Shown here piece after piece: positions 7,389 to 45,281 of a DNA stretch of 64,000 nucleotides. Source of the DNA: a bacterium (GTDB taxonomy: Bacteria > Verrucomicrobiota > Verrucomicrobiia > Methylacidiphilales > Verrucolacustridaceae); the NCBI GenBank assembly GCA_043805085.1, contig JAZDII010000086.1, positions 2,807-66,806 on the forward strand, read 5' to 3'. A model generated the notes under the pieces. It searched no databases. It saw nothing but the letters and a program-made list of their open reading frames with translations, and was not told where the DNA came from. Within the stretch, counting starts at the first letter, position 1. The number at the start of each line of letters is the position of its first letter. The translations under genes and the position numbers were made by a program.

Positions 7389-7422
7389 ACTTTTTTCCTT
7401 TCTATTTTAAACTTCAAAAAAT

Positions 7423-9852: not shown

Positions 9853-9870
9853 AAAGAAATTTGTTTTACA

Positions 9871-9912
9871 AAACCGCCGTCGAAAGGGGCGGCGTCATGG
9901 CAACGCCGCCCC
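9871..9912 (-). terminator. GC-rich hairpin after the capsid-like gene (partial terminator or attenuator)
   Basis: On the minus strand a perfect 9-bp stem forms between ggggcggcg (9912-9904) and cgccgcccc (9894-9886), followed by ttt. A weaker alternative stem, cgccg/cggcg, is followed by gttttgt. The structure lies in the 80-nt gap between the 486-aa and 809-aa genes. Confidence 0.45.
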
Positions 9913-9932
9913 GTTCCTTTCATTCACTTCCA

Positions 9933-11393
9933 TCAGGACAAAGAAACATCCACGCCCCGATGAGTTACCGCATGGCGAATGAGCACATAATTCGCGCCCA
10001 AACCATCCGTCCGCACGCACGGCGCTTGGCCGAAGATGGACTTCACGCCAATGCCCCTATCATCGCCGTAATTTTGATGATCCGAAACAATACGCAGATT
10101 CTTAATCCGGCCATACGCCCGCACCGCAGCCATCGCGCCGAAGAGAAACGTCGAACCAATCGGCACGCCATTCTCATTCGCCTCAATAATCAGCGAACCT
10201 TCCGGGTGAGCATCCGTATGCTTAGCCGCATTCCACGTCACGCCGCCCAGAGTCGTCTCGGCAATGCCGCCCGCCGCAGCTCTCAAACGCCCGGCCATCA
10301 CCAGCTTATTGCCGGAATTGGTCACATACTGATAGAAACCCCACTTGCCCGCGTTCGCGCCTGTCAGGTTATAAACAATGACATAGCGATCTGTCGTGAA
10401 CGTCTCCGCATCTTGATCGGCAAAGAACTTAAAGTCGTAGTTCGAGAACGACTCAAAGTATTGCGGCGCGGGCGTCCGAGCCACATTAGCCGTATTGCCG
10501 CCGCCGTAAATATCCTGCGCCGTGTCCGCCGCTGTAACCGCCGAACCCAAATACGCCTTCGGCAACATCGGGCAACCCACCGGCCCCGCGCCTGCATAAT
10601 CTACAGGCGAAAATTCAAAAATACCCTGACCAGCCCAATCCGTATAACCGCCAGCAAAAAGCGGATTATCCTGACCGCGCAAAGCCGCCTCGCGCAAACC
10701 CTGCAAATAAGCCGTCGAAGCCTTCACACTGCGCAAACCCGTCTTCGTTCCCACCACAAGAAACTGATGAACCTCGCTGCCGTGAACCGACTGGCCGATA
10801 TTCGCCGGAATCGCGCCGTTGATCTGCGCGGCTTCCGCTGCGTCCTCGATTACCGTCGTCGAAAGCGTGTCGACCAACGTCAACGTGCTGTCGCTCTGCC
10901 TGCTGTTAGGGCGAACGGTATTGCGCTGCTGCGCGCTATTGATCAACTTCAACATCATCGCCGTCTGCTTATAACGCCCCATCCAATCGGCCAGCGCGTC
11001 GCGGCATCTATTATCCAACTCCGAGCCGACATCCGTGAACTCCGATGCCGCAAACTGTAACCCAACAACCTTGCGCACAATCTCCACGCGCACATCATAA
11101 CTCCCCAAACTCAACTGCTCCTCCTGCCCCTCCGCGTCATTGCTGCCTAAAATCGCCGGCCCGCCGAGACCCTCCATCACATGAAAATGCAACGTGTCCC
11201 CGCGCCCCTTGCTCAAATCCTCGCGCACATAAAAAGGCTTGCGACTGCCGTCCGTCCCCTCCAACGCGCTGAAAATATCCTTCGTCTGACTCAACAACTC
11301 CAAATGATTGGACCAAAACTCTTCCTTAGCCTTTGGATCTTGCGCCAAAACATCCGCCAAAGAATTAACCTCTAATTTATTTAATGAACTCAT
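9933..11393 (-). CDS. Phage major capsid protein-like (N4-gp56 / DUF4043-type, HK97 fold predicted)
   Basis: In this 486-aa protein the segment ...LSKGRGDTLHFHVMEGLGGPAILGSNDAEGQEEQLSLGSYDVRVEIVRK... matches the (K)GD-x-I-x-F...L-x-G-x-G...GD..LEG-x-EE-x-L...V-x-ID-x-xRH pattern I recall for N4-type capsid proteins. The assignment needs an HMM or structure check. Confidence 0.55.
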   Translation of the reverse strand: MSSLNKLEVNSLADVLAQDPKAKEEFWSNHLELLSQTKDIFSALEGTDGSRKPFYVREDLSKGRGDTLHFHVMEGLGGPAILGSNDAEGQEEQLSLGSYDVRVEIVRKVVGLQFAASEFTDVGSELDNRCRDALADWMGRYKQTAMMLKLINSAQQRNTVRPNSRQSDSTLTLVDTLSTTVIEDAAEAAQINGAIPANIGQSVHGSEVHQFLVVGTKTGLRSVKASTAYLQGLREAALRGQDNPLFAGGYTDWAGQGIFEFSPVDYAGAGPVGCPMLPKAYLGSAVTAADTAQDIYGGGNTANVARTPAPQYFESFSNYDFKFFADQDAETFTTDRYVIVYNLTGANAGKWGFYQYVTNSGNKLVMAGRLRAAAGGIAETTLGGVTWNAAKHTDAHPEGSLIIEANENGVPIGSTFLFGAMAAVRAYGRIKNLRIVSDHQNYGDDRGIGVKSIFGQAPCVRTDGLGANYVLIRHAVTHRGVDVSLS

Positions 11394-19302: not shown

Positions 19303-19809
19303 CTACCACCCCTCTGCCACAAGCTTCACTAAATTAACCGCCAAATCATCCGCTGCGGATGGCAACGCTTGACGCTCTCCCTCTTGCAAGTTGTCTTGAA
19401 CAAAATACCGCGTCTTGCCTGTAACCTTGCGCTTGGTGAAAATCCTCTTGCCCGATTTTAAATTCGTCAACGTCGCTTCCGCTTCCAACGTCACTTCATA
19501 CTCATCCGTCACCTGAACATCCTCGCGCGACCGCCTCAAAGGCGACCTCGTCAGACGCGTGACCCTCACCTCCAACGTCGCATCCGCTTGACCTTCACGC
19601 GAAGAAGAAAACGTTCCGTCATTGTCAATGCGCCGCAAAATAGCATTCGTCACCATCACCGGCAAACCCGGCTCATAACTGTCATTCTTGACCACAGGCA
19701 CAAAAATCGTTTTGACGCCCTTCATCTCTGCGCTCGGAATATTTCCTAAACGGTAACCCGCGCAACTCATCAACACGCACATCGCTCCCAAAAAAATCCA
19801 CTTCTTCAT
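19303..19809 (-). CDS. lptE: LptE-like LPS-assembly lipoprotein
   Basis: The lipobox is LMSCAGYRLG. The 168-aa size and overall pattern (C-GY-x-L...NxSxxPG...) resemble LptE. It overlaps the upstream BamD-like gene by 4 nt. Confidence 0.5.
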   Translation of the reverse strand: MKKWIFLGAMCVLMSCAGYRLGNIPSAEMKGVKTIFVPVVKNDSYEPGLPVMVTNAILRRIDNDGTFSSSREGQADATLEVRVTRLTRSPLRRSREDVQVTDEYEVTLEAEATLTNLKSGKRIFTKRKVTGKTRYFVQDNLQEGERQALPSAADDLAVNLVKLVAEGW

Positions 19810-20834
19810 GTTAAAGGCGCTCCTTCTTTCTTCTCTTCTTTTGTTTGATCTTTCTCATCTCCTGTTTGAGTCGTTTCCTTTTGAGAATCTCCCTTTTCCA
19901 TCTGCGGCTTTAACGCCTCCACGCGCTCCTTCGCCTCGCGCCCCTGCTTGGAATCAGGATTCTGCCTCACCACCTCATTGTAATAAATATAAGCCGCCTT
20001 CAAGTTATCTTGTCTCTCATAAAATCTGGCAATATTCAACGCGCCTTGAGAAATACGCCCCTTCAACGCCGCAATATGCGCCTTTGCCTGCTCCGCCTTC
20101 TCACTATTAGGAAAGCGCGTCAAAAAATCCTGAAACGCCTGAATAGACTTCTCCGCCGCGCTCTGGTCATAATCCGGTTCGCTGGCGGCGTTAAGCCAAG
20201 CAAAACCAATCTGATACTGCGCGTCATCCACCAAATCACTGCCGGGATACTTGTCTAAGATCATATTGTAAGAAGCAATCGCATCCGTCCACTTCCTCTG
20301 CTTTTCCCGCGCAAGACCGATCTGAAAATAAGCTGGCGCGGCATAGTCCCCGTAAGGCGCGGCGCGAATCACACTCTCGAAAATTTCCACCGCCTTATTC
20401 ATCGAAGGCAGCAACGGAATCTTCCAAAGCCGCTGCGGTTCGCCCGCAAAAAAAAGATTCCCGATGGCATATTGCCTTTCCACCGCGAGATTGAAAAATT
20501 GGCTGTTCGGGTATTTTTCCACCACCTTCTTATAAGCTTGAAACGCCGGCCAAAATTCCCCCCTCTTCTCCAACATCAGCCCCATCTTAAACTGCGCCTC
20601 GCTGGCATAAGTGGACAGCGGCCATTGTCTCAACAAAACGCGATACGCTCGAAAAGCATCCTGCCACGCCTGCTTCGCTTCCAAATCCCGCGCCAAATCC
20701 AGCTGCGATTTGACATCCTTGGCGTGAGTCGCGTCGCCGCTTTCATCCGCCCAGCCCTCGCCCGGCCTCCACGTCAGAATAGCGGAAGCTGGTTGAACCA
20801 TAGCCATCAAAAGAAAAATGATGATCCAGCGCAT
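19806..20834 (-). CDS. bamD: BamD/YfiO-like TPR outer-membrane assembly protein
   Basis: A signal peptide is followed by repeated TPR-like units (AQFKMGLMLEKRGEFWPAFQAYKKVVEKYPNS; AQYQIGFAW...; FLTRFPNSEKAEQA). There is no clear lipobox Cys, so the call is tentative. Confidence 0.5.
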   Translation of the reverse strand: MRWIIIFLLMAMVQPASAILTWRPGEGWADESGDATHAKDVKSQLDLARDLEAKQAWQDAFRAYRVLLRQWPLSTYASEAQFKMGLMLEKRGEFWPAFQAYKKVVEKYPNSQFFNLAVERQYAIGNLFFAGEPQRLWKIPLLPSMNKAVEIFESVIRAAPYGDYAAPAYFQIGLAREKQRKWTDAIASYNMILDKYPGSDLVDDAQYQIGFAWLNAASEPDYDQSAAEKSIQAFQDFLTRFPNSEKAEQAKAHIAALKGRISQGALNIARFYERQDNLKAAYIYYNEVVRQNPDSKQGREAKERVEALKPQMEKGDSQKETTQTGDEKDQTKEEKKEGAPLT

Positions 20835-20873
20835 CGTTAAAACCTAGCAGTTTGACCAACAAATTGCGAGACA

Positions 20874-21743
20874 TTATCCCTTGGTGCTCGCCCCGCTCCA
20901 CCGAAGCTTCTGGCGGACAATGTTGTAGAAACTAGCCTCTGGCAAATGAGCCAAAAGGGCGGGTTCTTTTGCGGCAAAAATTTTCACTCGATCTTTCGGC
21001 TGCAACTTCAAATGCGTCACCCCATCTGACTGAAGAACCACCGGTGGGCTATTCTCTGGAACAACAAAATGCATCGGCTCGCGCGCCGCAACGATCAACG
21101 GACGATTGCTCAACGTATGCGCGCAAATAGGCGTGATAGAAAAAGCCGAAGCTTGCGGACTGATAATCGGCCCGCCAGCGGAAAGCGAATACGCCGTGCT
21201 GCCCGTCGGCGTCGCAAAAATCAACCCGTCGCAATGAAACTGCGTCAACAACTCATCCCCCACCTCCACCGTCAACCGAATCATGTGCCCATGGCTCCCG
21301 CGCGTCACAACAACATCATTCAACGCCCACCCCTCCTTCATGGTCTTCCCGCCCCTTTGCACCCTAAACTGCAGCGCCATACGCTTGCTTACAACGTAAT
21401 CGCCAGCCAACGCCCTCGGTAAAGCCACATGAATTTCATGATGAGGAATGGAAGTCAAAAAGCCCAAACTACCCAAATTAATTCCCAACAAAGGCACGCC
21501 GCTTCCTCTTGTCAACCTCGCCGCCCTCAACAATGTTCCATCTCCGCCCCCGACAATAATCATATCTTCCCCGCGCAAAGCAATAGGCTTCAGGTCAAGC
21601 GCAGTATTCACCTTAGGCATCGGAACCGACCGCGCTCTCACACTTGCGGCTTTCAAAATACTCTCCAACTCTTTGCCCATCTCTTGGGCATAGCCCTTCG
21701 TCGGATTGATCGCCACCACCACACTGCGAACTTTTGCGCGCAT
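20874..21743 (-). CDS. nadK: NAD+ kinase
   Basis: The GGDGTLLRAARL motif, the NxGxLGFL motif (INLGSLGFLT) and TPTGSTAYSLSAGGPI are all present. Confidence 0.9.
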   Translation of the reverse strand: MRAKVRSVVVAINPTKGYAQEMGKELESILKAASVRARSVPMPKVNTALDLKPIALRGEDMIIVGGGDGTLLRAARLTRGSGVPLLGINLGSLGFLTSIPHHEIHVALPRALAGDYVVSKRMALQFRVQRGGKTMKEGWALNDVVVTRGSHGHMIRLTVEVGDELLTQFHCDGLIFATPTGSTAYSLSAGGPIISPQASAFSITPICAHTLSNRPLIVAAREPMHFVVPENSPPVVLQSDGVTHLKLQPKDRVKIFAAKEPALLAHLPEASFYNIVRQKLRWSGASTKG

Positions 21744-21791: not shown

Positions 21792-22925
21792 TTAACCATA
21801 CGGATGCCCGTCAAAAACAGTCTGCACAATCATCCGCGCCGTCTTCTTCCAATCGAACGACCGGCCATGCTCCCTTGCCCGTTGGCCAAAACTTTGCCGC
21901 ATCGCCGCGTCCTCCATTAACCTTCTCACCGCGGCAGCAGCGCCCTCTAAATCCCCCTCATTCACCAACCACCCCGTCTTGCCGTGCAACACTGCCTCCC
22001 CAACCCCGCCCGTCCTAAATGCCACCGCAGGCTTGCCGTGATAAGCCGCTTCCAAATAACTCATGCCAAATCCCTCCACACTGTCCGCTAACGAACGACT
22101 CGTCATCATGAACAAATCGCAACTAGCATAGACCCTTGCCAAATTCTTATCCGCCACCGCGCCAAGCGTCTTGCACCGCACGCCATGTTGACGGCAAAAC
22201 ACCTTCACCTTCCACAAATAACCGAAACTACCCTTTCCGCCGACAACATAAACCACCTTCGCCCTCAACTGCTCCGGCAACAACGCCAAACTCCGCGCCG
22301 TCTCCAACTGCCCCTTGCGCGGATGAATCCTTGCCAGCGTCAACACACGAAACTCCTCTTTCTCCCTCGGTTTCAATTCTCCAACCTCTTGCGCGGCGGC
22401 GGAACTTGCCGCGCAGGGAGCTAAAATAATATGCCGCGCCCAAAAATGGCTCTCCAAAAGCTTGCGCGTGAATTCAGAAGCCACAAAAACCGCCTCCGCG
22501 CGCTTAAAAAAACGCTTCGCCAACCGCCGCCAAAAAGCGCTTCGATGAAATTTTAAAATTTCCGAACTGTGCAATAAACTGAAAAGCTTGCACCCCCTCA
22601 ACCCTCCCATCGCCATCAAAAGCATCACCGCCCGATGCGCCGCCACACTGCCAGCGATCAAACTCGCGCCGCGCAACTGCTTTCTTTTCAAAAATAAAGC
22701 CAAAACCATGAGGCATAAATTCAATAGACTCAATCTCCTGCCGCAAAAAATCATCCGCTCATTGCTCAACGGAATAACACGTCTCCGCGCTCTCTTGCTC
22801 CGCCAAGGAACCCAAACCTCTAACGGCAAAGATTGCTCGCCGGCCGCCTTGGCCGTCTCGTAACAATAAGTCGCTATCCCACCCCGAAAAGGGGGATATT
22901 CATGCGTTAATAAAATTACCTTCAT
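21792..22925 (-). CDS. Glycosyltransferase family 4 (GT-B, retaining type)
   Basis: The N-terminus reads MKVILLTHEYPPFRGGIATY. The C-terminal EGFGMSYLEAAYHGKPAVA motif is typical of the E-x7-E glycosyltransferases. Confidence 0.8.
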   Translation of the reverse strand: MKVILLTHEYPPFRGGIATYCYETAKAAGEQSLPLEVWVPWRSKRARRRVIPLSNERMIFCGRRLSLLNLCLMVLALFLKRKQLRGASLIAGSVAAHRAVMLLMAMGGLRGCKLFSLLHSSEILKFHRSAFWRRLAKRFFKRAEAVFVASEFTRKLLESHFWARHIILAPCAASSAAAQEVGELKPREKEEFRVLTLARIHPRKGQLETARSLALLPEQLRAKVVYVVGGKGSFGYLWKVKVFCRQHGVRCKTLGAVADKNLARVYASCDLFMMTSRSLADSVEGFGMSYLEAAYHGKPAVAFRTGGVGEAVLHGKTGWLVNEGDLEGAAAAVRRLMEDAAMRQSFGQRAREHGRSFDWKKTARMIVQTVFDGHPYG

Positions 22926-22986
22926 AAAAGTTTCTTGTGAAATCTTCCGTTTCCCTTAATCATAGGGAGCTTTACAGGAATTTTTC

Positions 22987-23880
22987 ATGGGCCGCAACTT
23001 AAGTGAAGCAGAATTAGAGCAAATCCGAAACTCCTTTCGTCGTTGTAATCACGAAACGATAGAAGCCATCGTTAAGCTACGTCAAACAGGTGATTCCTCT
23101 CTTATCCCTACCATCGTCTATGGCATCATTGAACGCTACGCGCCCGCAGGCTCTTCCAAAAAAATTTCCGAACTCCCCCCCAATACCCGCCTCATCGAAG
23201 ACCTCGCCATTGATTCCTTAACCATGCTGGAAGTCGTCCTTTCCATTGAAGAAGCTTTGCAGATACGCATCGAAAACGAAGAACTCCCTAAAATTCGCAC
23301 ACTGGAAGAAGTTAAAACATTCATCACCGAAAAAAACGCAGGCGTAAAATCAACTCCATCCACTCCAACAACCATGAAACTTGATCGCAGCGCCATCCTA
23401 GCCGTTCTTCCCCAGCAACCTCCCTTCCTCTTCCTCAACGCGGCGGAAATAGAAGGCGAAACCATTCGCGCGCGCTATAAAATCACCGGCGAAGAATACT
23501 TCCTGCAAGGTCACTTCAAAGGCAACCCCGTCTTCCCCGCTTCACTTGTCTTCGAAGCCATGGGCCAAGCCGCCTGCCTTTGGCTCTTGGGCCGTCCTGA
23601 ATCTCAATCCCTCGATTCCAAAAACGTTCTCTTCGGCTCCATGGAATCCGCCCACTTTTACCGCAAAGCCAAGCCGGGCGAAACCATCGAACTAGAAATC
23701 TCCCTTAGCAAACTCCGCAAACCTTTAGCCATCTTTAATGGCAAAGCATCCGTCAACGGCGAAAAACTTTCCTCCATCGAAGAACTCGTCATCGTTTTCG
23801 GCGAAGCCACGGAAGGCATTGTTCAACACGAAGCAACTCCTCCTGCTGCTTCCAAGCCTTCCGCCAAAACCCGTTCCTAA
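22987..23880 (+). CDS. Acyl carrier protein fused to a FabZ/FabA-like hotdog dehydratase
   Basis: The N-terminal half has the phosphopantetheine-attachment motif LAIDSLTMLEVV. The C-terminal half reads LPQQPPFLFLN...LQGHFKGNPVFPASLVFEAMGQA, which carries the catalytic His and Glu context of FabZ. Confidence 0.75.
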   Translation: MGRNLSEAELEQIRNSFRRCNHETIEAIVKLRQTGDSSLIPTIVYGIIERYAPAGSSKKISELPPNTRLIEDLAIDSLTMLEVVLSIEEALQIRIENEELPKIRTLEEVKTFITEKNAGVKSTPSTPTTMKLDRSAILAVLPQQPPFLFLNAAEIEGETIRARYKITGEEYFLQGHFKGNPVFPASLVFEAMGQAACLWLLGRPESQSLDSKNVLFGSMESAHFYRKAKPGETIELEISLSKLRKPLAIFNGKASVNGEKLSSIEELVIVFGEATEGIVQHEATPPAASKPSAKTRS

Positions 23881-23896
23881 AAACTACAGCAACTTC

Positions 23897-25159
23897 ATGA
23901 GACGCGCCGTTGTCACAGGCTTGGGATTCATCACAAGCATCGGAAACGACCTTCCGACCGTTTTAACCAACCTCAAAGAAGGACGTTCCGGCGTCGAACT
24001 TTTTCATGAATTCGACGAAGAGAACATCCCCGTCAAACTAGCCGGAACGATTAAAGATTTTTCCTTCCCCACTCCTCATTTTGAAGATTGGACATTTCCG
24101 GAAAAATACACTCTCACGCGAGAACAACGCCGCCCCATGACGCCCAACTCGCTCTATGCTTTTTGCGCCATGCAACAAGCCATCGAAGACGCCAAACTCT
24201 CTTCCAAACAAGTTTCCCACAATCCTCGAACCGGCCTCATGTGCGCTTCCGGCGGCTCGATGTGGATGGCCTACGAAACCCTCCACACCATGCTCAACCA
24301 CGGCCTCCAGCGCGTGCCGCCCATGTCAGTCATCAACAGCATCCCCGGCTCTCTTTATATCAACCTCGGCTCGACATTTAAAATCCAAGGCGGCGCGCTC
24401 GGCTTCTCCAGCGCATGCTCCTCCTCCTCTCACGCTCTAGGAACGGCGCGGGACTTAATCGCCCTCGACCGCCAAGACCGCGTTTTCGTCGTCGGCGCGG
24501 AAGATTGCAACAAGTACACGCTCCTCCCCTTTACCTCCATCCGCGCCTTGAGTTCTCAAAAAGACCCGCGCAAAGCGCCTCGCGCCTTTGACAAAAAACG
24601 CGATGGCTTCGTTGGAACCGGCGGCGCATGCGTTCTTGTTGTGGAAGAATTAAAAACAGCTCAAGCGCGCAACGCTCCTATTTACGCGGAAATCCTAGGT
24701 TGGGGACAATCCTCCGACGGCTACAACATCCTCGCTCCCGAACCCACTGGTGACGGCCTTGCCCGCAGCATGCAAACAGCCCTCAAAGAAGCCTCCATCC
24801 TTCCTGAACAAGTGGATTACATCAACGCCCACGCCACATCCACCGTCGTCGGCGATATCGCGGAAATCAAAGCCATCAAAACAGCTTTCCCCAACGGCAA
24901 ACGCCCCCTTGTCAGCAGCACAAAAAGCATCACAGGCCACGGCCTTTCTCTCGCAGGCGCGATGGAAGCCGCCTTTTGCTGCTTATCTATTAAAGAAAAA
25001 TTCGTTCCTATCTCCGCCAACATCACGGAACTCGACCCCGAATGCCACGGCGTCCCCATCATCACCCAACCCACAAAAGCCGAACCTAAAATCGTCATCT
25101 CCAACTCAAGCGGCTTCGGCGGCTCGAACGTCTCGGTCATTCTTGGGCCAACCCCCTGA
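23897..25159 (+). CDS. Beta-ketoacyl-ACP synthase (KAS I/II, FabB/FabF-like)
   Basis: The sequence shows MRRAVVTGLGFITSIGN, the active-site Cys in FSSACSSSSHALG, and the catalytic His residues in NAHATST and SITGHGL. The ORF-track start at 23738 is an upstream extension that overlaps the previous gene. Confidence 0.9.
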   Translation: MRRAVVTGLGFITSIGNDLPTVLTNLKEGRSGVELFHEFDEENIPVKLAGTIKDFSFPTPHFEDWTFPEKYTLTREQRRPMTPNSLYAFCAMQQAIEDAKLSSKQVSHNPRTGLMCASGGSMWMAYETLHTMLNHGLQRVPPMSVINSIPGSLYINLGSTFKIQGGALGFSSACSSSSHALGTARDLIALDRQDRVFVVGAEDCNKYTLLPFTSIRALSSQKDPRKAPRAFDKKRDGFVGTGGACVLVVEELKTAQARNAPIYAEILGWGQSSDGYNILAPEPTGDGLARSMQTALKEASILPEQVDYINAHATSTVVGDIAEIKAIKTAFPNGKRPLVSSTKSITGHGLSLAGAMEAAFCCLSIKEKFVPISANITELDPECHGVPIITQPTKAEPKIVISNSSGFGGSNVSVILGPTP

Positions 25160-25164
25160 ACAGC

Positions 25165-25974
25165 ATGCCCAACGTCTTCCTCACGGGCGCCAGCGCGGGC
25201 ATCGGTCTTACCACAGCAAAACGACTAACCGGCGAGGGCTTCCAAGTTTGGGGAACCTCGCGCGACATCTCCCGCCTGCCAAATCTCAAAAACTTTCACC
25301 CGCTTCAACTTAACCTCAACGATTCTCAATCCATCGAAACCGCTTTCCGCCGCGCCCTCGCTGAAGCAGGCGCTCTGGACATCCTCATCAACAACGCTGG
25401 CTGCGGCTATTTTGCCCCGCTCGAACATCTCTCTCCTGAAATTTGGCAAGAACAACTCCAAACACTCCTCCTCGGCCCGCTCCAACTCATCCGACTTGCG
25501 CTGCCCGTAATGAAACAAAAAAAAGGACTGATCATTAACGTCGCCTCCCTAGCCGCGCGCTTTCCCCTTCCGTTCATGTCGCCTTACAACGCGTCAAAAG
25601 CCGCGCTCCATTCCCTCACGCAAACGTTGCGACTGGAACTCGGTCCGCGCTCTCCCGTTCAAGTCGTTGAGCTTCAGCCGGGCGACATTCGCACTCCCTT
25701 CCACGATTCCATGCGCTGCCAATCTCAAACGGAAGACTACGCGTCGGCCATGAAAAACGCCCATGCCGTGATGACGCGTAACATCCAAGCAGCCCCGCCG
25801 CCGGAAAAAGTCGCTGAAATCATCCTGCGCATCATCCGCGCTCCCTCTCCAAAACCCCTCTACAAAGCCGGTGATTTTTTCCAAACGGCGCTCGCCCCTC
25901 TCGGCTCTAGACTTTTTCCCGCCGCGCTTTTAGAACGCGCTTTGAGATTGTTCTATCGCTTGGATGAAAAATAA
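25165..25974 (+). CDS. Short-chain dehydrogenase/reductase (SDR)
   Basis: TGASAGIG is the cofactor-binding motif, NNAG is present, and YNASKAAL is the catalytic Yxxx(K) motif. Confidence 0.85.
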   Translation: MPNVFLTGASAGIGLTTAKRLTGEGFQVWGTSRDISRLPNLKNFHPLQLNLNDSQSIETAFRRALAEAGALDILINNAGCGYFAPLEHLSPEIWQEQLQTLLLGPLQLIRLALPVMKQKKGLIINVASLAARFPLPFMSPYNASKAALHSLTQTLRLELGPRSPVQVVELQPGDIRTPFHDSMRCQSQTEDYASAMKNAHAVMTRNIQAAPPPEKVAEIILRIIRAPSPKPLYKAGDFFQTALAPLGSRLFPAALLERALRLFYRLDEK

Positions 25975-25985
25975 CGCCGCGCCCG

Positions 25986-27215
25986 TCACATCTTAAACGT
26001 CTCTTTAATCACCTCAAACGCCGCGTCCGCTTTTTGAAGCGTCTCTTGGACATCCTTGGGCTGATGCGCCGCGCACAGAAACCAATTATGATGCGGATGG
26101 AAAAAGATGCCGCGCTTCACGCATTCCGCGGCAAAACGCTGCGAGCGGTAAAAATTCGTCTCCTCCGCAAAAGTAAGAAACGGCAGAGACGGCGGCCCTG
26201 AACAACGCACAGGAATACCGTGTTTATCCGCCAGCTCATGCAATCCGCCCATCAAAAGTTCCCCCATGCGCTGCATGTGCGCGATGCTTTTTTCCCGCTC
26301 CAACACTTGCAAACAAGCCAGCGCGACGGCCATAGGCACAGCGTTATTCCAAAAACTTCCCGTCAAAAAAACCCGCGACGCCGCGATCTCCAGTTCCTTC
26401 CTCCCCAACGCCGCGGAAATGGGATAACCGTTGCCAAGCGCTTTGGAAAAGCAAATCACATCCGGTTCAAATCCAAAAAACCGATGCGATCCGCCCAGAT
26501 GCAAACGAAACCCCGCGCGCACATCGTCGAGAATGAAAACAATCCCCTCCCGCCGACATGTGATTTCGATTTCCTTAAAAAATCCGGAATTGGGCAAAAC
26601 GGAATCGCCAAAAGCAGGATGATGAAAAGGCGTCATCACTATCGCCGCGATTTGATTGCGGTATTTTTTTATCTGACGATGAAAATCATCCAAATCGTTC
26701 CACAGAAAATCGTGAACATGCGCCCGATCCTCTTCCATCAAACCTCCGTGGCCGATCGTGCACCATGCGTGCCAACCATGATAAGCGCCTCTGACCTTTA
26801 AAATTTTCTTCCGTTTCGTGAACTCGCGCGCCACTTGCGTCGCCCACGTCGTCATATCCGACCCATTCTTGCCGAACACCGCCCAATCCGCAAAATCCAC
26901 CAACTCCACCAACCGCTCCGCCAATTCCACCATCAAATACGTGGGATGATTGAAACAATCGCCGTCCCGCCGTTGGCGTTGCGCCGCTGCTTCCACTTCC
27001 GGATGTTTATAACCCAAAACAATCGGCCCGTAAGCGCACATGTAATCAATATATTCCCGTCCATCCACATCCACATAACGACACCCCTCCGCCTTGCTGG
27101 CGAAATAAGGAAACTCTCCGGCAACAGTCAAAGCTGGACTGCTGTGCCCGTAGATGCCGGCGGGAATCACCCGCGCCGCCCGCTCAAAAAGCTTCATGGA
27201 TTCTGGGAACATCAT
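25986..27215 (-). CDS. Class-III (glutamate-1-semialdehyde aminomutase-like) PLP aminotransferase
   Basis: The sequence shows GHSSP...AEGCRYVDVDGREYIDY...GP..LGY, FILDDVRAGFR, and the PLP lysine in CFSKALGNGYPISA. Confidence 0.8.
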   Translation of the reverse strand: MMFPESMKLFERAARVIPAGIYGHSSPALTVAGEFPYFASKAEGCRYVDVDGREYIDYMCAYGPIVLGYKHPEVEAAAQRQRRDGDCFNHPTYLMVELAERLVELVDFADWAVFGKNGSDMTTWATQVAREFTKRKKILKVRGAYHGWHAWCTIGHGGLMEEDRAHVHDFLWNDLDDFHRQIKKYRNQIAAIVMTPFHHPAFGDSVLPNSGFFKEIEITCRREGIVFILDDVRAGFRLHLGGSHRFFGFEPDVICFSKALGNGYPISAALGRKELEIAASRVFLTGSFWNNAVPMAVALACLQVLEREKSIAHMQRMGELLMGGLHELADKHGIPVRCSGPPSLPFLTFAEETNFYRSQRFAAECVKRGIFFHPHHNWFLCAAHQPKDVQETLQKADAAFEVIKETFKM

Positions 27216-27226
27216 CGCAATAACCC

Positions 27227-28030
27227 TTAAAGATACTCGCCCACACGCTCCATCACAAGACCGATGCTATCCGCCAACGGCGCAAAACCTTCGATGCGCA
27301 AGAGGCCCTTTCCAATCGCCGCCTGTGTATCAAGCTTTTGACTGGCCAAAGCGCAAACAATTTCCGGCTTGCTAAAAATGACCCTCACATCCGGCAACGC
27401 CGAAGGCGTCTGACCAAAACCCTCCAAAAGTTGTCCCTTTAAAGAACGCACCCACACCACGCCTTCCTGCCCCTCAATCCCAAACACCGCCAATCCCTCC
27501 GGAAAATGATCAAGAGCCGCTTGCGCAATAGGATCAAGCCCGCTCACAATCACCGTGCTGCGGATAAGCGCGTGAAGGGTCATTTGCGCGTGACGCCGCA
27601 AAAACGCGCGATCTTCCAAAGCGGCGGCCTCCGGCTTTAAATAATGCGTCAACAACGCCGCTAATTTACCGATTTTCTTTAATTTAAAGAGATGTAAAAG
27701 GTTTCCCGTAAATAAAGGCGGAAAGAAAATCTTCCCCTCAAAAAACCGGTTGAACTGGTTGTAAGTGGCATACCTGACGTTCAACTTCATCCCAAACGGC
27801 CTCTTTTTAGGACCGACACTGCGCCGAATCATACCATCATCAAAAACCAACGTCGTGGACGGCCCGCCGATCACTCCGATTTTTAAAGCAAAGTGCCATC
27901 CCCTCGTCAAATCCCGCGCCTCTTGCGAATAGGAAGCCAAATCTTCCATCCCCGTAAGAATCGCGCGCAAATATAAGTGCGCCCGAATTTTTGCATGCAA
28001 CCGATTTTTCACGCCGCTTTTAACCTGCAT
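27227..28030 (-). CDS. SCP2 sterol/lipid-carrier-like domain protein
   Basis: The C-terminal QKLDTQAAIGKGLLRIEGFAPLADSIGLVM resembles the ...G-K-l-k-I-x-G-d... end of SCP2 domains. The annotated ATG lies inside a perfect 12-bp palindrome, so an internal start (MEDLASY) is possible. Confidence 0.45.
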   Translation of the reverse strand: MQVKSGVKNRLHAKIRAHLYLRAILTGMEDLASYSQEARDLTRGWHFALKIGVIGGPSTTLVFDDGMIRRSVGPKKRPFGMKLNVRYATYNQFNRFFEGKIFFPPLFTGNLLHLFKLKKIGKLAALLTHYLKPEAAALEDRAFLRRHAQMTLHALIRSTVIVSGLDPIAQAALDHFPEGLAVFGIEGQEGVVWVRSLKGQLLEGFGQTPSALPDVRVIFSKPEIVCALASQKLDTQAAIGKGLLRIEGFAPLADSIGLVMERVGEYL

Positions 28031-28236
28031 ATCTCACAATCTTTTGTGAGATATGCACCCTGAAGGACAGCTTTTTCTTTAGGAAAGAGCTGGGTTAACC
28101 CCGCTCCTTCCTTCGAGTAGCTACATCTCATATACTGTTTTTATTCTCTACCATAATTTTGACTCTATTTTTCCTTCTCTTCAGAAGGAGCGGTTCGGCT
28201 CCCGCCGAATGAATTTCTCACAAATTCGTGAGAAAT

Positions 28237-29367
28237 TCAGGTCAACTCCGCCAATTTTTCAAAAATGTTCAAAGGATGATTCTTTGGCCGGATCTCCGCC
28301 ATGCGACGGCGAATCTCCTCCAACCGCTCCGGATGCCGCATCCACTCTGCAACGATAACCGGCAAATCCCGTGCGCGCCGCGCCATTTGCCCTAAACCAT
28401 ATTTGCGACAAAACTTCACCGTGATTCCTTCTTGCGGCATCACGCCCCCCAACCCGTTAAAAATAAGAGGACAGCCGGAAAGAATCGCCTCGCTCGTCGT
28501 GCCCGTGCCCGGTCGCGCGACAATCGCCGAAGCCGCGCCCAAAATGCGCGGCATGTCATCAGTATAAGCCATAGCTTTGACGGGAAATCCCGAATGTAGC
28601 CTAGCCCAGCCCTTCACTTCTGCAAGCGTTCGCTTCGACCTCCCGCAAAGAGCCAAAACCTGCGACCTCACACCGGCTTTCCAAAGAGCGTTAAGAAACC
28701 GAAGATGACAATTCGCCCCCATCGCGCCCGTTCCCAAAACGAGAAGAAACTGCCGAGGATCAAAACCAAGTTCTTTTTCAACAAACTGATCCCTCTCTTG
28801 CTCGCGCCATGAGCCAGCCCAAAAAGCCGGCCTCAACAAAAAACCCCCGCTCCAAATCCGCTCCAACGGCATTCCCCAATCCGCCGCCGCCTGACACGTC
28901 TCGTCCACCGCGCCGATGAATAAATCCGCCTGCGGATTGACCCAGTGTTTACTAAAACCGTAGCCGCCGAACAACTCGCCGCAATAGGTGACGCACTTCA
29001 CATCTTTTAACACCGCACGCGCCAACTCAAAAAAACCGTGGTTCAGCGTCCCGTGCACGCTGACGATGACATCCGGCCTTGTTTCTTTTAACACGCGCTG
29101 AAACTTCTTTTTCCCTAACATACGCCGCGAGCTCCGGCACATACCGGCAACTTCAAGAAAGTTAAAATAGACATGGTGCAATGCGGGACAATTTTTCTGG
29201 ATAAAATTATAAAACCCCACGCCGAACCGATACAACCCGTGCGCGTCCTCCAATGCTTGATGCACGACTGCTTCCGCGTCCGCCGCGCGCGCCGCCCACT
29301 CGCGCAACGCCCGCGCGCGCATATCATGCCCGCCGCCGGTGCTGGAAGTAAGAACAAGAATTTTCAT
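28237..29367 (-). CDS. MGDG-synthase/MurG-like glycosyltransferase (GT28)
   Basis: MKILVLTSSTGGGHDMRARAL...FYNF...HHVYFNFLE is typical of the N-terminal domain of monogalactosyldiacylglycerol synthases. The ORF-track start at 29706 adds ~113 residues that are not homologous and overlap the divergent gene. Confidence 0.75.
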   Translation of the reverse strand: MKILVLTSSTGGGHDMRARALREWAARAADAEAVVHQALEDAHGLYRFGVGFYNFIQKNCPALHHVYFNFLEVAGMCRSSRRMLGKKKFQRVLKETRPDVIVSVHGTLNHGFFELARAVLKDVKCVTYCGELFGGYGFSKHWVNPQADLFIGAVDETCQAAADWGMPLERIWSGGFLLRPAFWAGSWREQERDQFVEKELGFDPRQFLLVLGTGAMGANCHLRFLNALWKAGVRSQVLALCGRSKRTLAEVKGWARLHSGFPVKAMAYTDDMPRILGAASAIVARPGTGTTSEAILSGCPLIFNGLGGVMPQEGITVKFCRKYGLGQMARRARDLPVIVAEWMRHPERLEEIRRRMAEIRPKNHPLNIFEKLAELT

Positions 29368-29436
29368 CGCAAACAAGCCCGCCCATTCCTCCATAGACAA
29401 GACTTCAAACAAGGAGCATAAATAACACTCCCCGCT

Positions 29437-30474
29437 ATGGCAAAGATTCTCTACGGCGTCATGGGCAACACGTATGGCCACATTATGCGAGCCCGCGCGA
29501 TTGTGAACCAGTGGAAAGGGCATGAATTCTACTTCATCGGCGGCGGGCGCGTGATGGAAACGTTGAAAAAAGAATTCCCCGTTCTTGAAGTCCCCGTTCT
29601 GCGCACGGTGCACCGCAAGCAAAGCGTGAATGTGCCCGCCGTCATCGAACAAATCTTCGGGCGGCTTTGGGACATCCCGCGCGTCTGCAAACGCATCGCG
29701 CGGCACATCGAATCATGGCAGCCGGACTTGGCCGTTTGCGACCGCGAGTTTTTCCTCCCGTTCGCTTGCCGCCGAACCGGCCTGCGCTGCGTTTCCGTTG
29801 ACCATTCCCATGTCCTCATCAACTGCCGCTACCCCGTGCCTTCATCCCAACGCCTTTCGTGGTCTCTTGCGATGGCCAACGATCTCCTCCTCTTCAACCA
29901 CACGCGCGAAAACTGCATCGTCTCGTTTTTTCATCCGCCGTTGAAAAAAAACGCGCCCGCCTTTCTTTTCCCGCCTGTGCTGCGACCAGAAGTCACCGCC
30001 ATTCAGCCCGGCCACGGCGAACATGTCCTCGTTTATCAAACCAGCCCCACGTTCAAATTCCTCATAGACGCGCTGCGCAGCCTGAAACGCAAAGTGATTG
30101 TCTACGGCTTCAGAAACGAGCTGGAAACGCAAAGAAACATCACTTTCAAACCTTACAACCTCAACTCCATCCTCGAAGACCTTGCCGGTTGCGCCTATGC
30201 CGTCGTCAACGGCGGGCACAACCTCATCTCCGAAGCCCTTTTCTTCGGCAAACCCGTCCTGTGTTTTCCCATCGCCAATCTTTTCGAGCAATTCCTCAAC
30301 GCATGGCACGTCCGCGAACTCGGCTACGGCGATTTTTCCCTTTCCACAAAACCCAACGCGGCTTTGTTTGAACAATTCGAAGCCAAACTCGACTCATTTC
30401 ACATCGAAGGAAAAAACTTCGACGGCACGAGCCAAGTTGTCCATTACCTGCAAAATCGTCTGCCGTCCGCATGA
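29437..30474 (+). CDS. Glycosyltransferase (GT-B, MJ1255/TIGR00661-like)
   Basis: The sequence shows MAKILYGVMGNTYGHIMRA... and C-terminal AVVNGGHNLISEALFFGKPVLCFP. Confidence 0.65.
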   Translation: MAKILYGVMGNTYGHIMRARAIVNQWKGHEFYFIGGGRVMETLKKEFPVLEVPVLRTVHRKQSVNVPAVIEQIFGRLWDIPRVCKRIARHIESWQPDLAVCDREFFLPFACRRTGLRCVSVDHSHVLINCRYPVPSSQRLSWSLAMANDLLLFNHTRENCIVSFFHPPLKKNAPAFLFPPVLRPEVTAIQPGHGEHVLVYQTSPTFKFLIDALRSLKRKVIVYGFRNELETQRNITFKPYNLNSILEDLAGCAYAVVNGGHNLISEALFFGKPVLCFPIANLFEQFLNAWHVRELGYGDFSLSTKPNAALFEQFEAKLDSFHIEGKNFDGTSQVVHYLQNRLPSA

Positions 30475-31778
30475 AACCGCGCCTCGCTTATTTCACCGTG
30501 CGCTATCCCACGCTGACGCAAACGTTCATCCAGCGCGAAGTCGAAGGCCTTTGCCGTCAAGGACTGGACGTGCACGTTTTCCCCTGCCAACAATTCGGCC
30601 TGCCGGTCCCAAGCAAAGCGGGAGAAAGACCCGCCATACATCCTTTGGACTCAAAAAACTGGGCGCATTTATTGAGCGAAACCGCCTCCGCTCTTTGGCG
30701 GGAACCGAAGTTGGCCTTAAGTTTCCTTCATTTCGTCAAAGTTTATCACATCAACAAAAGCCGCAGTTTTCTTTCTGAAAAATTTTCAGAAAACATTTTC
30801 GGTTGCCGCGTCTTTTCGGAAAATTTCTTGGCCAATCTTTGGGGATGCTTGGCCGCGCTTGCCCATCTACACAAGCTGCGGGAACTGGATGTTCACATGG
30901 TTCACGGCGCATGGGCCACCATGCCCGCCACTGCCGCAGCCGTTTGCTCTTATTTTCTAAAAAAACCGTTCTCCTTCGGCGCGCATGCTTACGATCTCTA
31001 CCGCCACGGCGGCGACGGCTTGCTCAAGGAAAAACTCAACGCCGCCGCTTTTGTCCACACCACCACGCAAACCAACTCGCGCCTTTTGCTCTCGCTCATC
31101 CAGCAAAATAAAAACCGATGCGACATGGTGGCCGTCCCTCGTGGTTTGCCCGACCTGCCGCCGTTCATCGAACGCGCCGAGCTACCTCAAACGATCCGCA
31201 TCCTCTCCGTTGGCAGACTCATTTCTAAAAAAGGCCACACGCACCAAATCGAAGCCTGCCGCGTTCTTAAAAAACGCGGTCTTCCCTTTCATCTCAAAAT
31301 CATCGGCGACGGCCTGCTGCGCCAAGAACTGCAAAACAAAATCAATTCCCTCGGCTTAACGACACAAATCGAACTCGCCGGCGCGCTCTTGCCGGAAGCC
31401 GTTTGGAAGGCTTACCATGACGCCGATCTCTTTTGGCACACCGGCATCGTGGACGCCTTTGGCGACCGCGATGGCCTACCCAACGTCATCCCCGAAGCCA
31501 TGGCGCATGGCGTTCCCGTCATCTCCTCAACCGGCGAAGGAGCTGCGGAAGCCGTCCAACACAACATCACCGGCCTCATCGTAGACGTGACCTCGCCTGA
31601 AGCGTTGGCAACAGCCGTGGAACAGCTCGCCCAACAGCGCGACCTCCGCGCCCGCCTCGCTCGCAACGCCCGCCAATGGGTCGAAGAAAACTTTTCTACA
31701 GAAAAAAACACCGCCGTCCTCGCCAACGCTTTTGTCCGAGCCATTGCTAAACATAACTCCGCAACACCATCTCCTTAG
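30471..31778 (+). CDS. Glycosyltransferase family 4 (WcaL-like)
   Basis: The sequence shows VGRLISKKGH, and DGLPNVIPEAMAHGVPVISS matches the E-x7-E motif. It overlaps the upstream glycosyltransferase gene by 4 nt. Confidence 0.8.
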   Translation: MKPRLAYFTVRYPTLTQTFIQREVEGLCRQGLDVHVFPCQQFGLPVPSKAGERPAIHPLDSKNWAHLLSETASALWREPKLALSFLHFVKVYHINKSRSFLSEKFSENIFGCRVFSENFLANLWGCLAALAHLHKLRELDVHMVHGAWATMPATAAAVCSYFLKKPFSFGAHAYDLYRHGGDGLLKEKLNAAAFVHTTTQTNSRLLLSLIQQNKNRCDMVAVPRGLPDLPPFIERAELPQTIRILSVGRLISKKGHTHQIEACRVLKKRGLPFHLKIIGDGLLRQELQNKINSLGLTTQIELAGALLPEAVWKAYHDADLFWHTGIVDAFGDRDGLPNVIPEAMAHGVPVISSTGEGAAEAVQHNITGLIVDVTSPEALATAVEQLAQQRDLRARLARNARQWVEENFSTEKNTAVLANAFVRAIAKHNSATPSP

Positions 31779-32844: not shown

Positions 32845-33396
32845 ATGAACCCTCAACCAACACTTCACACCTCACGTCTTATCCTTAGACCATTTCAATT
32901 GGAAGACGCGCCGATGGTTCAAAAACTGGCCGGAGACAAAGACGTCGCCTCAACAACGCTAACCATTCCTCATCCTTACGAGGACGGCATGGCGGAAAAA
33001 TGGATTAAAACGCGCACGATAGACTACGAAAAAGGTGAAAGAATAACCTTTGCCATCACCCATAAAAGCAGCCTTATCGGCGCGATTAACCTCCGCAACG
33101 ACGAACACATTCACCAATGCGCTGAAATAGGCTATTGGATTGGCAAGCCTTATTGGAAAAACGGATTTTGCACCGAAGCCGCCCTCGCCCTTTTATGTTA
33201 CGGCTTTCAGGAACTAGGCTTGAACCGCATCTACGCCACACATTTTGTTCGCAATCCGGCATCCGGCCGCGTGATGCAAAAAATCGGCATGAAAAAAGAA
33301 GGTGTTCTCCGTCAAAGCGTCCAAAAATGGGGGGTATTTGAAGACCAGGTCCTCTACGGCATCCTCAAAAGCGAATTTGAATCAGCTCAAAAATAA
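32845..33396 (+). CDS. GNAT family N-acetyltransferase (RimJ/RimL-like)
   Basis: The sequence shows LHTSRLILRPFQLEDAP..., IGYWIGKPYWKNGFCTEA and NPASGRVMQKIGMKKEG. Confidence 0.85.
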   Translation: MNPQPTLHTSRLILRPFQLEDAPMVQKLAGDKDVASTTLTIPHPYEDGMAEKWIKTRTIDYEKGERITFAITHKSSLIGAINLRNDEHIHQCAEIGYWIGKPYWKNGFCTEAALALLCYGFQELGLNRIYATHFVRNPASGRVMQKIGMKKEGVLRQSVQKWGVFEDQVLYGILKSEFESAQK

Positions 33397-44420: not shown

Positions 44421-45281
44421 CTACGCCCCACTCTTGATCCCCGCTGATTTCATCAGCCAGCTCGTTATTCCGCGACGCGCGACGCGCGGGAACAATTCCG
44501 ACCCTAAACAAAACATTCTCTGAAAAGTCGAGGTCCACGCCAGCGGCCGCTCTTTCTCCAACGCCTTCAATCCGGCTTTCACCACCTCTTCCACCGACTG
44601 TGCATGCGCAAAGAAACGCGGATCGAGATTCGCCTTCTCCTGAAATTCCGTGTCCACCGGCCCGGGACAAAGACAGGAAACCAGCACGCCCCTGTCTTTC
44701 ACTTCGTCATATAATGCTTCGGACAAGTTGATGACGTAGCTCTTCGTCGCCGCATAAACGGAAAAATAAGGCACCGGCTGAAAGCCCGCCGTTGAAGCAA
44801 TGTTCAGAATAAAACCCGACCTTCGCTCAATCATCGGCGGCAAAAACAAACGGCAAAGATGGGTCAGAACAATCAAGTTCACCGTCAACATCCGATCCAC
44901 CTGCTCCTGTGAAAGCTCATGCAAAGCCGCTTGCCAACCCAACCCCGCATTATTGATCAGCCCTTTCACTTCCAATCCCTTTTCACGGCACTTGGCGAAC
45001 AGCAACTCCGCCGCGCCAATCTGATACAAATCAAACGGCATCGGCACAATATCCACATCTTTAAATTCATTCCGTAGGGCATTGAGCCTCTCTTCGCGGC
45101 GGGAAACCAAAATCAAAGAAACACCGCGCTGGGCCAGCGCGCGGGCAAAACCCGCGCCGATGCCGCTGCTCGCGCCCGTAATCAAAACATAAGGATTGCT
45201 CACAATCCCGCCTATCTTTCCGCTTCTCTTCGGCGAATCAAACGAATTTTGCGCAATCTTACGGAACACGCTCCACAGCAC
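44421..45281 (-). CDS. SDR family oxidoreductase
   Basis: The motifs ITGASSGIG, NNAG and YAATKSYV are present. The start is uncertain: GTG at 45281 or an internal GTG before VSNPYVLITG. Confidence 0.8.
   Translation of the reverse strand: MLWSVFRKIAQNSFDSPKRSGKIGGIVSNPYVLITGASSGIGAGFARALAQRGVSLILVSRREERLNALRNEFKDVDIVPMPFDLYQIGAAELLFAKCREKGLEVKGLINNAGLGWQAALHELSQEQVDRMLTVNLIVLTHLCRLFLPPMIERRSGFILNIASTAGFQPVPYFSVYAATKSYVINLSEALYDEVKDRGVLVSCLCPGPVDTEFQEKANLDPRFFAHAQSVEEVVKAGLKALEKERPLAWTSTFQRMFCLGSELFPRVARRGITSWLMKSAGIKSGA

Follow-up and report, generated by a model that had tools for sequence, protein, structure and literature searches.

What kind of lipid is assembled by nine adjacent genes that bring together a dedicated acyl carrier, a condensing enzyme, an aminotransferase and four glycosyltransferases is the question raised by positions 21792–31778 of the 64,000-nucleotide stretch analyzed here (hereafter the window), part of contig JAZDII010000086.1 from a bacterium of the Methylacidiphilales (Verrucomicrobiota). 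We give about an even chance to the reading that these genes are one local form of a pathway spread across the Verrucomicrobiota, which would yield a glycosylated lipid built on a sphingoid-type long-chain base; every step of it is drawn from homology and synteny. In kind, the cluster most likely represents bacterial sphingolipid or glycosphingolipid synthesis by an undescribed route. Three rival explanations, which taken together fall somewhat below an even chance, are weighed alongside the evidence that bears on each.

Gene content and organization

An earlier note on this DNA had described nine open reading frames (ORFs) in the region. All nine lie where it had placed them, and scans with Pfam and NCBIfam confirmed every one of its domain calls:

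21792–22925, minus strand: family 4 glycosyltransferase, GT4a (PF00534 6.9e-29, PF13439 9e-11), divergent from the gene that follows.
22987–23880, plus strand: fusion of an acyl carrier protein (ACP) and a FabZ-like dehydratase, ACPDH (PF07977 6.2e-19, PF00550 2e-5).
23897–25159, plus strand: elongating ketoacyl-ACP synthase (KAS), KAS I/II-like (FabF model 365 bits, FabB model 356 bits).
25165–25974, plus strand: classical short-chain dehydrogenase/reductase, SDR (PF00106 2e-42).
25986–27215, minus strand: class-III, pyridoxal phosphate (PLP)-dependent aminotransferase, AT, FumI-like (PF00202 5e-47).
27227–28030, minus strand: SCP2-like lipid-binding protein of 267 aa, SCP2L (Pfam SCP2 E=0.026 for the lone protein, with support at the family level).
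28237–29373, minus strand: GT28, a glycosyltransferase resembling monogalactosyldiacylglycerol (MGDG) synthase (PF06925 and PF04101), first gene of the GT28-SCP2L-AT operon.
29437–30474, plus strand: MJ1255/VC2487-type glycosyltransferase (PF13528 3.6e-64; TIGR00661 147 bits, cut-off 195.9).
30471–31778, plus strand: second GT4 glycosyltransferase, GT4b (PF00534 2.5e-34), its start overlapping the MJ1255-type gene by 4 nt.

While the ORFs themselves are real, some of the gene starts had to be revised: KAS begins at 23897 rather than 23738, with the sequence MRRAVVTGLG... starting 16 nt past the ACPDH stop, and GT28 begins at 29373, a start that leaves no overlap with the divergent MJ1255-type gene. 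Four transcription units are seen instead of the three proposed before, namely GT4a on the minus strand, ACPDH-KAS-SDR on the plus strand and convergent on the minus-strand GT28-SCP2L-AT, and MJ1255-GT4b on the plus strand. SCP2L and AT are separated by an 11-nt gap.

Conservation and modularity of the cluster

Linkage of these genes was followed by tblastn of the window proteins against 81 non-redundant Verrucomicrobiota loci containing ACPDH, in which only loci with enough flanking sequence were counted, and it is far beyond chance. KAS follows ACPDH in 69/75 loci, a divergent GT4 lies upstream of ACPDH in 51/79, and an SDR is present in 53/69, GT28 in 37/50, a downstream GT4 in 27/50, an MJ1255-type glycosyltransferase in 10/50 and AT in 12/81. 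In Opitutales, the order ACPDH-KAS-SDR-GT28-GT4-GT4 is found on a single strand with short or overlapping junctions, and this arrangement, together with the co-occurrence counts, establishes that the cluster is real. The proposal of a dedicated, co-conserved lipid or glycolipid cluster apart from the housekeeping fab genes is thus borne out by the counts in 81 loci, and among 29 flanking ORFs scanned with Pfam there was no fabD, fabH, fabI or acc gene. The cluster is also modular, with module A comprising the GT4 gene divergent from ACPDH-KAS-SDR, module B the GT28-SCP2L-AT triad, and module C the MJ1255-GT4 pair.

The aminotransferase and its SCP2-like partner

AT, described before as similar to glutamate-1-semialdehyde (GSA) aminotransferases, is far nearer to FumI (PDB 6hbs; 357 bits, E 1.5e-105, 43.5% identity over 400 residues and full length) than to the best GSA aminomutase (173 bits). 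Other PDB scores are 149 bits for aminoglycoside C-6' aminotransferases and 85 bits for the aminotransferase (AMT) domain of MycA (PDB 6kfm). The Lys of the AT segment SKALGNG aligns with that of GKCFANG in FumI, so that a full-length similarity clearly above that to other class-III enzymes and a retained PLP lysine both place AT in the FumI-like class. FumI itself strips the C2 amine off hydrolysed fumonisin B1, a sphinganine analogue, with pyruvate as the acceptor (PMC3136697). The AT family is large, with 3287 protein clusters at E<=1e-60, and the NCBI gene call for the window protein is a 403-aa version.

Several other assignments for AT were considered and rejected. Readings as a haem (HemL) or biotin (BioF/BioA) enzyme are contradicted by the curated models, as AT reaches 231 bits against a cut-off of 527 for TIGR00713, 239 against 398 for PRK00062, and 97 against 405 for the BioA model TIGR00508; neither pathway, moreover, has a place for glycosyltransferases or SCP2L, and adjacency to hemB occurs in a single locus (L163; L-numbers label the related loci and contigs compared with the window). 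Plasmid-borne relatives (39–43% identity) were set aside, the one locus inspected, from Burkholderia, having an unrelated context. The previously suggested analogy to the AMT domain of MycA/ItuA, which would have AT produce a beta-amino acyl thioester, is not supported, given the match of only 85 bits against 357 for FumI and the free-standing nature of the AT gene. AT, moreover, accompanies SCP2L even with no KAS or ACP nearby.

The designation of its partner as SCP2-like is weak for the lone protein and solid for the family, of which 289 representatives were collected, 35/60 relatives matching Pfam SCP2 (PF02036) with a best value of 8e-9. A word-indexed search with the window SCP2L returned just that protein. 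The AlphaFold2 (AF2) model (pLDDT 95) has two alpha/beta halves, of which the C-terminal is clearly an SCP2 domain, and Foldseek relates it to SCP2 and to the SCP2 domain of UbiJ (both at TMt ~0.65), as well as to the C-terminal domain of an alkylsulfatase. A metagenome scan with the AT alignment yielded 80 loci (AT 49–70% identity), and over those that could be assessed, SCP2L lies directly upstream of AT in 52/63. Upstream of the SCP2L-AT pair is GT28 in 12/48 loci and an alpha-oxoamine synthase (AOS, or AONS) in 13/48, and an SDR with 44–49% identity to that of the window is convergent downstream of AT in 17/38. The pair is conserved across phyla, and its coupling is tight in L029, where the two genes overlap by 4 nt. 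An apparent 743-aa SCP2L-AT fusion in L026 proved to be an ORF-calling artefact, an Arg/Ala-rich out-of-frame extension of genes that are separate. In L084, L128 and L173 (the last labelled Opitutales), GT28 and SCP2L stand behind panB-gpsA-SET and are completed by AT in L128 and L173 and by an enoyl-CoA hydratase in L084, indicating that SCP2L partners with different enzymes.

An Spt-like enzyme in related clusters

Clustering of all ORFs from the ACPDH loci revealed an AONS in 21/81 of them. It stands directly upstream of ACPDH in L037, a Methylacidiphilales metagenome-assembled genome (MAG) with the order AONS-ACPDH-KAS, and directly downstream in L078, a Puniceicoccaceae MAG with the order ACPDH-AONS-GT4, and in other loci it is convergent on the last GT4. 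Among PDB entries it comes closest to the serine palmitoyltransferase (Spt) of Sphingobacterium multivorum, with 315 bits versus 260 for a KBL/AONS enzyme, and Spt is also its best NCBIfam match, at a score under the cut-off. The earlier note had found the layout unlike those of sphingolipid clusters, and for the window this is correct, since tblastn with 21 verrucomicrobial AONS sequences (E<=1e-3) detected no AONS/Spt in the 64 kb; syntenic clusters in relatives, however, do carry the Spt-like enzyme. The cultured Verrucomicrobium sp. GAS474 has the order AONS, BlaI/BlaR, GT4b, MJ1255, two membrane proteins, GT28, SCP2L, AT, one further gene, SDR, KAS, ACPDH and a divergent GT4a, that is, the window architecture plus an AONS, with AONS and AT ~14 kb apart. 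In L135, from a metagenome, a GT28-SCP2L-AT-AONS operon is convergent on an operon of ACPDH/KAS-SDR-GT4, with a divergent GT4 beyond.

These two loci also dispose of the notion that AT replaces Spt, to which the ACPDH-anchored counts had pointed (12 loci with AT, 21 with AONS, none with both). The exclusivity is apparent only because flanks were limited to 10 kb, and GAS474 and L135 carry both genes. The same observations bear on a route to an amino-lipid that would dispense with Spt, in which KAS would make a 3-ketoacyl-ACP or a methyl ketone derived from it, and the SCP2-assisted AT would turn this into a beta-amino acyl or 2-aminoalkyl lipid for subsequent glycosylation. The lack of an AONS in the 64 kb, and within <=10 kb in 12/12 ACPDH-anchored loci with AT, is in keeping with such a route, as are the direct neighbourhood of the KAS-SDR genes and AT and the existence of class-III aminotransferases acting on beta-ketoacyl thioesters, exemplified by the MycA domain. 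We nevertheless judge it unlikely in view of the flank artefact just described, of the far closer relation of AT to FumI than to that domain, and of the occurrence of SCP2L-AT both without KAS or ACP and directly after an AOS.

A further arrangement was observed in four soil and peat metagenome loci (L094, L101, L107 and L122), where a polyketide synthase (PKS) of 2,500 aa with the domain order KS-AT-DH-ER-KR-ACP, an AOS, SCP2L and a FumI-like AT stand in series, convergent on SDR and GT4 genes (1–2 per locus), with a GT21, a Wza-like protein and an ABC-2 exporter further out. These clusters resemble an SgaABC-type sphinganine pathway to which the formation and export of a glycolipid have been added.

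Putative acyl-supply genes and the candidate reductase

ACPDH consists of an N-terminal helical extension, a carrier domain with Ser77 in a DSL motif, a linker, and a FabZ-type hot-dog dehydratase domain with His176 and Glu190, the three residues being invariant in 21 relatives. The phosphopantetheine-binding domain with its invariant serine marks a dedicated acyl carrier. In the AF2 model (pLDDT 83), the dehydratase domain superimposes on FabZ structures with TMt 0.84–0.90 (Foldseek) and shares with them the hot-dog fold and the His/Glu dyad, at an NCBIfam FabZ score of 81.5 bits that is under the 113-bit cut-off. The family counts at least 1400 protein clusters, and a scan with one genome per species found it in at least 455 species; all its named carriers are Verrucomicrobiota or members of the wider PVC group, with labels of Chthoniobacterales, Verrucomicrobiia, Methylacidiphilales, Opitutales and Puniceicoccaceae; the window protein is 100% identical to that of an NCBI MAG, and a lookup of its exact sequence gave no entry. 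A supposed split version near the triad in L173 was rejected, since tblastn finds no similarity between the 181-aa protein and the fusion; the protein contains a FabA-type His/Asp motif and looks like a genuine FabA.

KAS finds its best PDB match in FabB (7pps, 288 bits), to which it aligns with a Cys (ACSSS), a His (HATST) and a His (GHGLS) at three columns that we take for the active-site positions of FabB; in the 7pps chain the first of these is Ala. Its scores lie under the equivalog cut-offs of both FabF and FabB, and it therefore forms a distinct clade. The SDR is a candidate 3-keto long-chain-base reductase resembling KDSR and SgaC, as suggested by its match to NCBIfam KdsR (154 bits, the third-best model, cut-off 400) and by its 44–49% identity to the SDR convergent to AT in the PKS-AOS metagenome clusters, an orthologue that itself scores 173 bits on KdsR, again under the cut-off. 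SDR, AONS, KAS and FabZ all miss their curated cut-offs, which makes each a putative member of its specific enzyme family.

Glycosyltransferases

GT28 matches MGD1 (PDB 4wyi) with 78 bits and the processive diacylglycerol glucosyltransferase with 36 bits. With the GT28 enzymes of GT28-SCP2L-AT triads elsewhere in the Verrucomicrobiota, which are its orthologues, it shares 50–52% identity, and the in-cluster GT28 of Opitutales is a paralogue at 35–38%. Orthologues of the MJ1255-type enzyme, with 54–63% identity, stand beside the triad in L170 and in the GAS474 contig L171.

GT28 being of a family whose known MGDG-synthase relatives use diacylglycerol, the product might instead be an amino-sugar glycolipid, for which GT28 would glycosylate, for example, diacylglycerol, the SDR would oxidize a sugar hydroxyl, AT aided by SCP2L would install the amine on the sugar, and ACPDH and KAS would only tailor acyl chains. 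Conservation of the triad even away from ACPDH and KAS, the SDR convergent to AT in many metagenome loci, and the presence of the aminoglycoside C-6' enzymes among the PDB matches of AT would all fit. However, the characterized enzyme by far nearest to AT is FumI, whose target is an amine on a lipid chain, SCP2L-AT also follows PKS-AOS with no GT28, and the SDR resembles ketodihydrosphingosine reductases rather than sugar dehydrogenases, which together make this explanation quite improbable.

A conserved pair of genes with no Pfam match was also noted between the MJ1255-type gene and GT28 in many relatives (L171 6573–8032, L170 5262–6790, L006, L019, L020, L023, L026, L029, L032, L036, L038, L089 and L105). 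From their sequences, one product has ~160 aa and one hydrophobic segment, the other ~330 aa and many such segments, making the pair a candidate flippase or membrane partner; tblastn found no match to it in the window.

Proposed pathway

In the sphingoid-base pathway we propose, the KAS I-like synthase would elongate an acyl chain on the carrier domain of the fusion, the fused dehydratase acting in cis and housekeeping FabD, FabG and FabI supplying the missing elongation steps, so that a long acyl chain would end on the dedicated carrier. An Spt-like AONS, which relatives encode within the cluster and which in the window genome presumably lies elsewhere or has been lost, would condense this acyl-ACP with an amino acid to a 2-amino-3-keto base, whose 3-keto group the KDSR/SgaC-like SDR would reduce. 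SCP2L would then hold the hydrophobic base for the soluble FumI-like AT, which would carry out an amine/ketone exchange on the lipid. This could be a FumI-type exchange at C2, as suggested by the nearest characterized homologue, a BioA-type amination of the 3-keto group leading to a vicinal diamine, as suggested by the order of an AOS gene followed by a class-III aminotransferase gene, or a GSA-type 2,3 transposition. Finally, GT28 would add the first sugar, and the MJ1255-type enzyme and the two GT4s would extend it to an oligoglycosyl envelope lipid. The co-conservation and operon structure of the genes, the Spt-like AONS of relatives, the clusters of GAS474 and L135, the similarity of AT to FumI and the position of SCP2L-AT behind PKS-AOS all speak for this scheme, as do the membership of GT28 in the lipid-acceptor MGDG-synthase family and the SCP2 fold of the AT partner, and a nitrogen-containing glycolipid, as anticipated in the earlier note, is supported as the most plausible product.

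A number of findings weigh against it. Apart from the missing AONS in the 64 kb, no ceramide-synthase candidate emerged, in that the clustered ORFs of 82 loci contain no conserved acyltransferase family, and a GNAT gene at 32845–33396, considered for this role, was rejected because none of the relatives has a homologue of it close to the cluster. SDR and AONS remain under every curated cut-off. SCP2L-AT is found in unrelated contexts which the model does not explain, following nuoF-nuoG-hemB in L163 (3693–9774) and preceding hexapeptide-acetyltransferase, DegT-aminotransferase and GT4 genes in L136 (6215–11556). No report of lipid chemistry was found for any carrier of the cluster. Lastly, the modules are separable: a 4.5-Mb genome has the MJ1255-type gene and GT28-SCP2L-AT ~90 kb from module A, module B of Opitutales sits behind panB-gpsA-SET, and some relatives retain only the divergent GT4 and ACPDH-KAS.

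Separability, in particular, would be expected if the region were not one pathway at all, and ACPDH with KAS (and possibly SDR) performed a FabA/FabB-like tailoring of fatty acids next to ordinary glycosyltransferases of the envelope or lipopolysaccharide. This explanation also accommodates the FabB-like nature of KAS, and the outer-membrane genes LptE and BamD found next to the cluster in the window and in an 85%-identical relative. What renders it improbable is the one-strand order of the Opitutales genes with its tight junctions, the recurrence of the same co-localization in Chthoniobacterales, Verrucomicrobiia, Methylacidiphilales and Opitutales, the AONS adjoining ACPDH in L037 and L078, and the parallel PKS-AOS-SCP2L-AT/SDR/GT4 architecture in other metagenomes.

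A broader and more tentative idea, on balance doubtful, takes SCP2L and the FumI-like AT as a previously unrecognized multi-phylum device that puts an amine on a membrane-embedded keto-lipid. In the window, its substrate would be a keto-lipid produced by ACP-FabZ and KAS, giving a sphingoid-like base without Spt, and where an AOS is present (GAS474, L135 and the PKS-AOS clusters) it would aminate 3-ketosphinganine in BioF/BioA fashion, giving 2,3-diamino long-chain bases, a class not yet described.

Relation to known systems

The Caulobacter/Sphingomonas-type ceramide pathway employs Spt, an ACP, an acyl-ACP synthetase, the ceramide synthase bCerS, the reductase CerR and Sgt glycosyltransferases. 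Relatives of the window resemble it in having a dedicated ACP beside an Spt-like enzyme, and the glycosyltransferases recall those that serve outer-membrane glycosphingolipids. In contrast, the window cluster has no acyl-ACP synthetase, bCerS or CerR-type reductase; its ACP is fused to a dehydratase and would be loaded via KAS, and its candidate reductase is a classical SDR resembling KDSR. The acpXL-fabZXL-fabF2XL-fabF1XL-lpxXL cluster of rhizobia makes the very-long-chain fatty acid of lipid A, and by analogy the window genes would likewise combine a special ACP with its own FabZ and KAS, borrow housekeeping reductases, and provide the acyl chain of an envelope glycolipid. They differ in the fusion of ACP and FabZ, in having one KAS, in the absence of an LpxXL-type acyltransferase from the window cluster and from the genes conserved in relatives, and in the fate of the chain, which is probably handed to AONS and not to lipid A. 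In biotin synthesis, BioF is an AOS and is followed by the class-III aminotransferase BioA, which aminates the keto group beside the new amine. The succession AOS-SCP2L-AT follows the same gene-pair logic, with the differences that the substrate of the window AT is presumably a long lipid and that no bioD or bioB is present.

A close counterpart is SgaABC of Pseudomonas fluorescens, described in 2025, in which a PKS, an AOS (SgaB, a proven SPT) and a KDSR-like SDR lead to C24–C28 sphinganines (PMC12134224). The likeness to this strain MYb115 system lies in a carrier-bound acyl factory that feeds an AOS and then a KDSR-like SDR, and the SgaABC-like PKS-AOS metagenome clusters carry orthologues of the window SCP2L, AT and SDR. 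In the window, ACP-FabZ and a KAS I-like enzyme would form a dissociated acyl factory in place of the KS-AT-DH-ER-KR-ACP megasynthase, and there is neither an iterative type I PKS, a form seen only in L094, L101, L107 and L122, nor an AOS. The window cluster further adds four glycosyltransferases and SCP2L-AT, of which the accessible part of PMC12134224 makes no mention.

FumI of Sphingopyxis sp. MTA144 shares with AT the class-III fold and its full-length similarity, and it targets the amine at C2 in a long-chain 2-amino-3-hydroxy lipid (PMC3136697). FumI is, however, catabolic and belongs to a fumonisin-degradation cluster, whereas the clade of the window AT (49–74% identity) has an upstream SCP2L and a biosynthetic context. 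The AMT domain of MycA/ItuA is alike in being a class-III PLP fold in a KS-containing lipid pathway, yet it resides within a megasynthase of PKS and nonribosomal peptide synthetase modules and acts on an ACP-bound beta-keto thioester, while AT is free-standing and partnered by SCP2L. For SCP2L, the structural model suggests a likeness to the SCP2 domain of UbiJ (PDB 6h6o), an accessory factor of ubiquinone synthesis whose fold would similarly present a hydrophobic intermediate to soluble enzymes; the two have no sequence similarity beyond the fold, and SCP2L has a two-half architecture and other partner enzymes.

Significance

Verrucomicrobiota are among the most abundant bacteria of soil, freshwater and gut, and their envelope lipids are barely characterized. 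In open-access papers and preprints, no description was found of the cluster, the ACP-FabZ fusion or the SCP2L-AT pair, the only related statement being one on Spt-like proteins encoded by 22 Verrucomicrobiota MAGs from the Black Sea (PMC11334938). Should the proposed pathway be correct, glycosphingolipid-like lipids would be made by members of several lineages of the Verrucomicrobiota, perhaps by most of the phylum, and the ACP-FabZ fusion with a FabB-like KAS would constitute a third solution to acyl supply, beside the acyl-ACP-synthetase and SgaA PKS routes. Equally, the SCP2L/FumI-like pair would represent a new tailoring step of bacterial sphingoid bases, common to the PKS-AOS clusters of other phyla, and would hint at the native function of FumI-family enzymes. 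The complete cluster of the cultured Verrucomicrobium sp. GAS474 makes the hypothesis directly testable.

Genomic surroundings

Within the GT28-SCP2L-AT operon, one further feature was identified:

28032–28233, no strand: palindrome-bracketed gap from GT28 to SCP2L (206 bp), with two perfect palindromes TCTCAC-N-GTGAGA.

One palindrome lies directly past the GT28 stop and the other directly ahead of the SCP2L start, and the gap between these genes is unusually long. The two copies (28032–28051 and 28216–28233) are the sole matches in the 64 kb, compared with none in 100 shuffles, and the pair may be an operator or form RNA hairpins. Promoter and terminator scans of the region gave nothing above shuffled expectation, and the window holds no tRNA gene and no Rfam match.

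LptE, BamD and NAD kinase are encoded directly upstream of GT4a (19303–21743), an order kept in the 85%-identical relative (L169 2294–4747), and BamD is also close to the cluster in GAS474 (L171 20807–21242), a neighbourhood that loosely connects the cluster with genes for outer-membrane assembly. The remaining genes of the window are housekeeping, including SdhAB, NadE, LptE, BamD, NAD kinase, LeuA, IlvC, LigA, PFOR and ProS, and comprise neither fab nor acc genes. On the minus strand at 5656–11393 are three large ORFs, two of which (443 and 809 aa) have no Pfam match and the third of which (486 aa) has a weak partial match to Phage_capsid_3 (E 4.5e-14); the segment could represent what is left of a prophage, or else a locus of encapsulin type. 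GC skew is strongly negative in nearly all 2-kb bins (-0.10 to -0.36, with -0.03 in the 56–58 kb bin) whatever the gene orientation, which suggests that the window falls entirely within a single replichore and that strand asymmetry in this genome is unusually pronounced. Downstream of the cluster, at a distance of 13–20 kb, are a Wzz/GNVR tyrosine-kinase-type polysaccharide co-polymerase (50139–52310) and a second classical SDR (44421–45281), the latter ~30–35% identical to the cluster SDRs of relatives.

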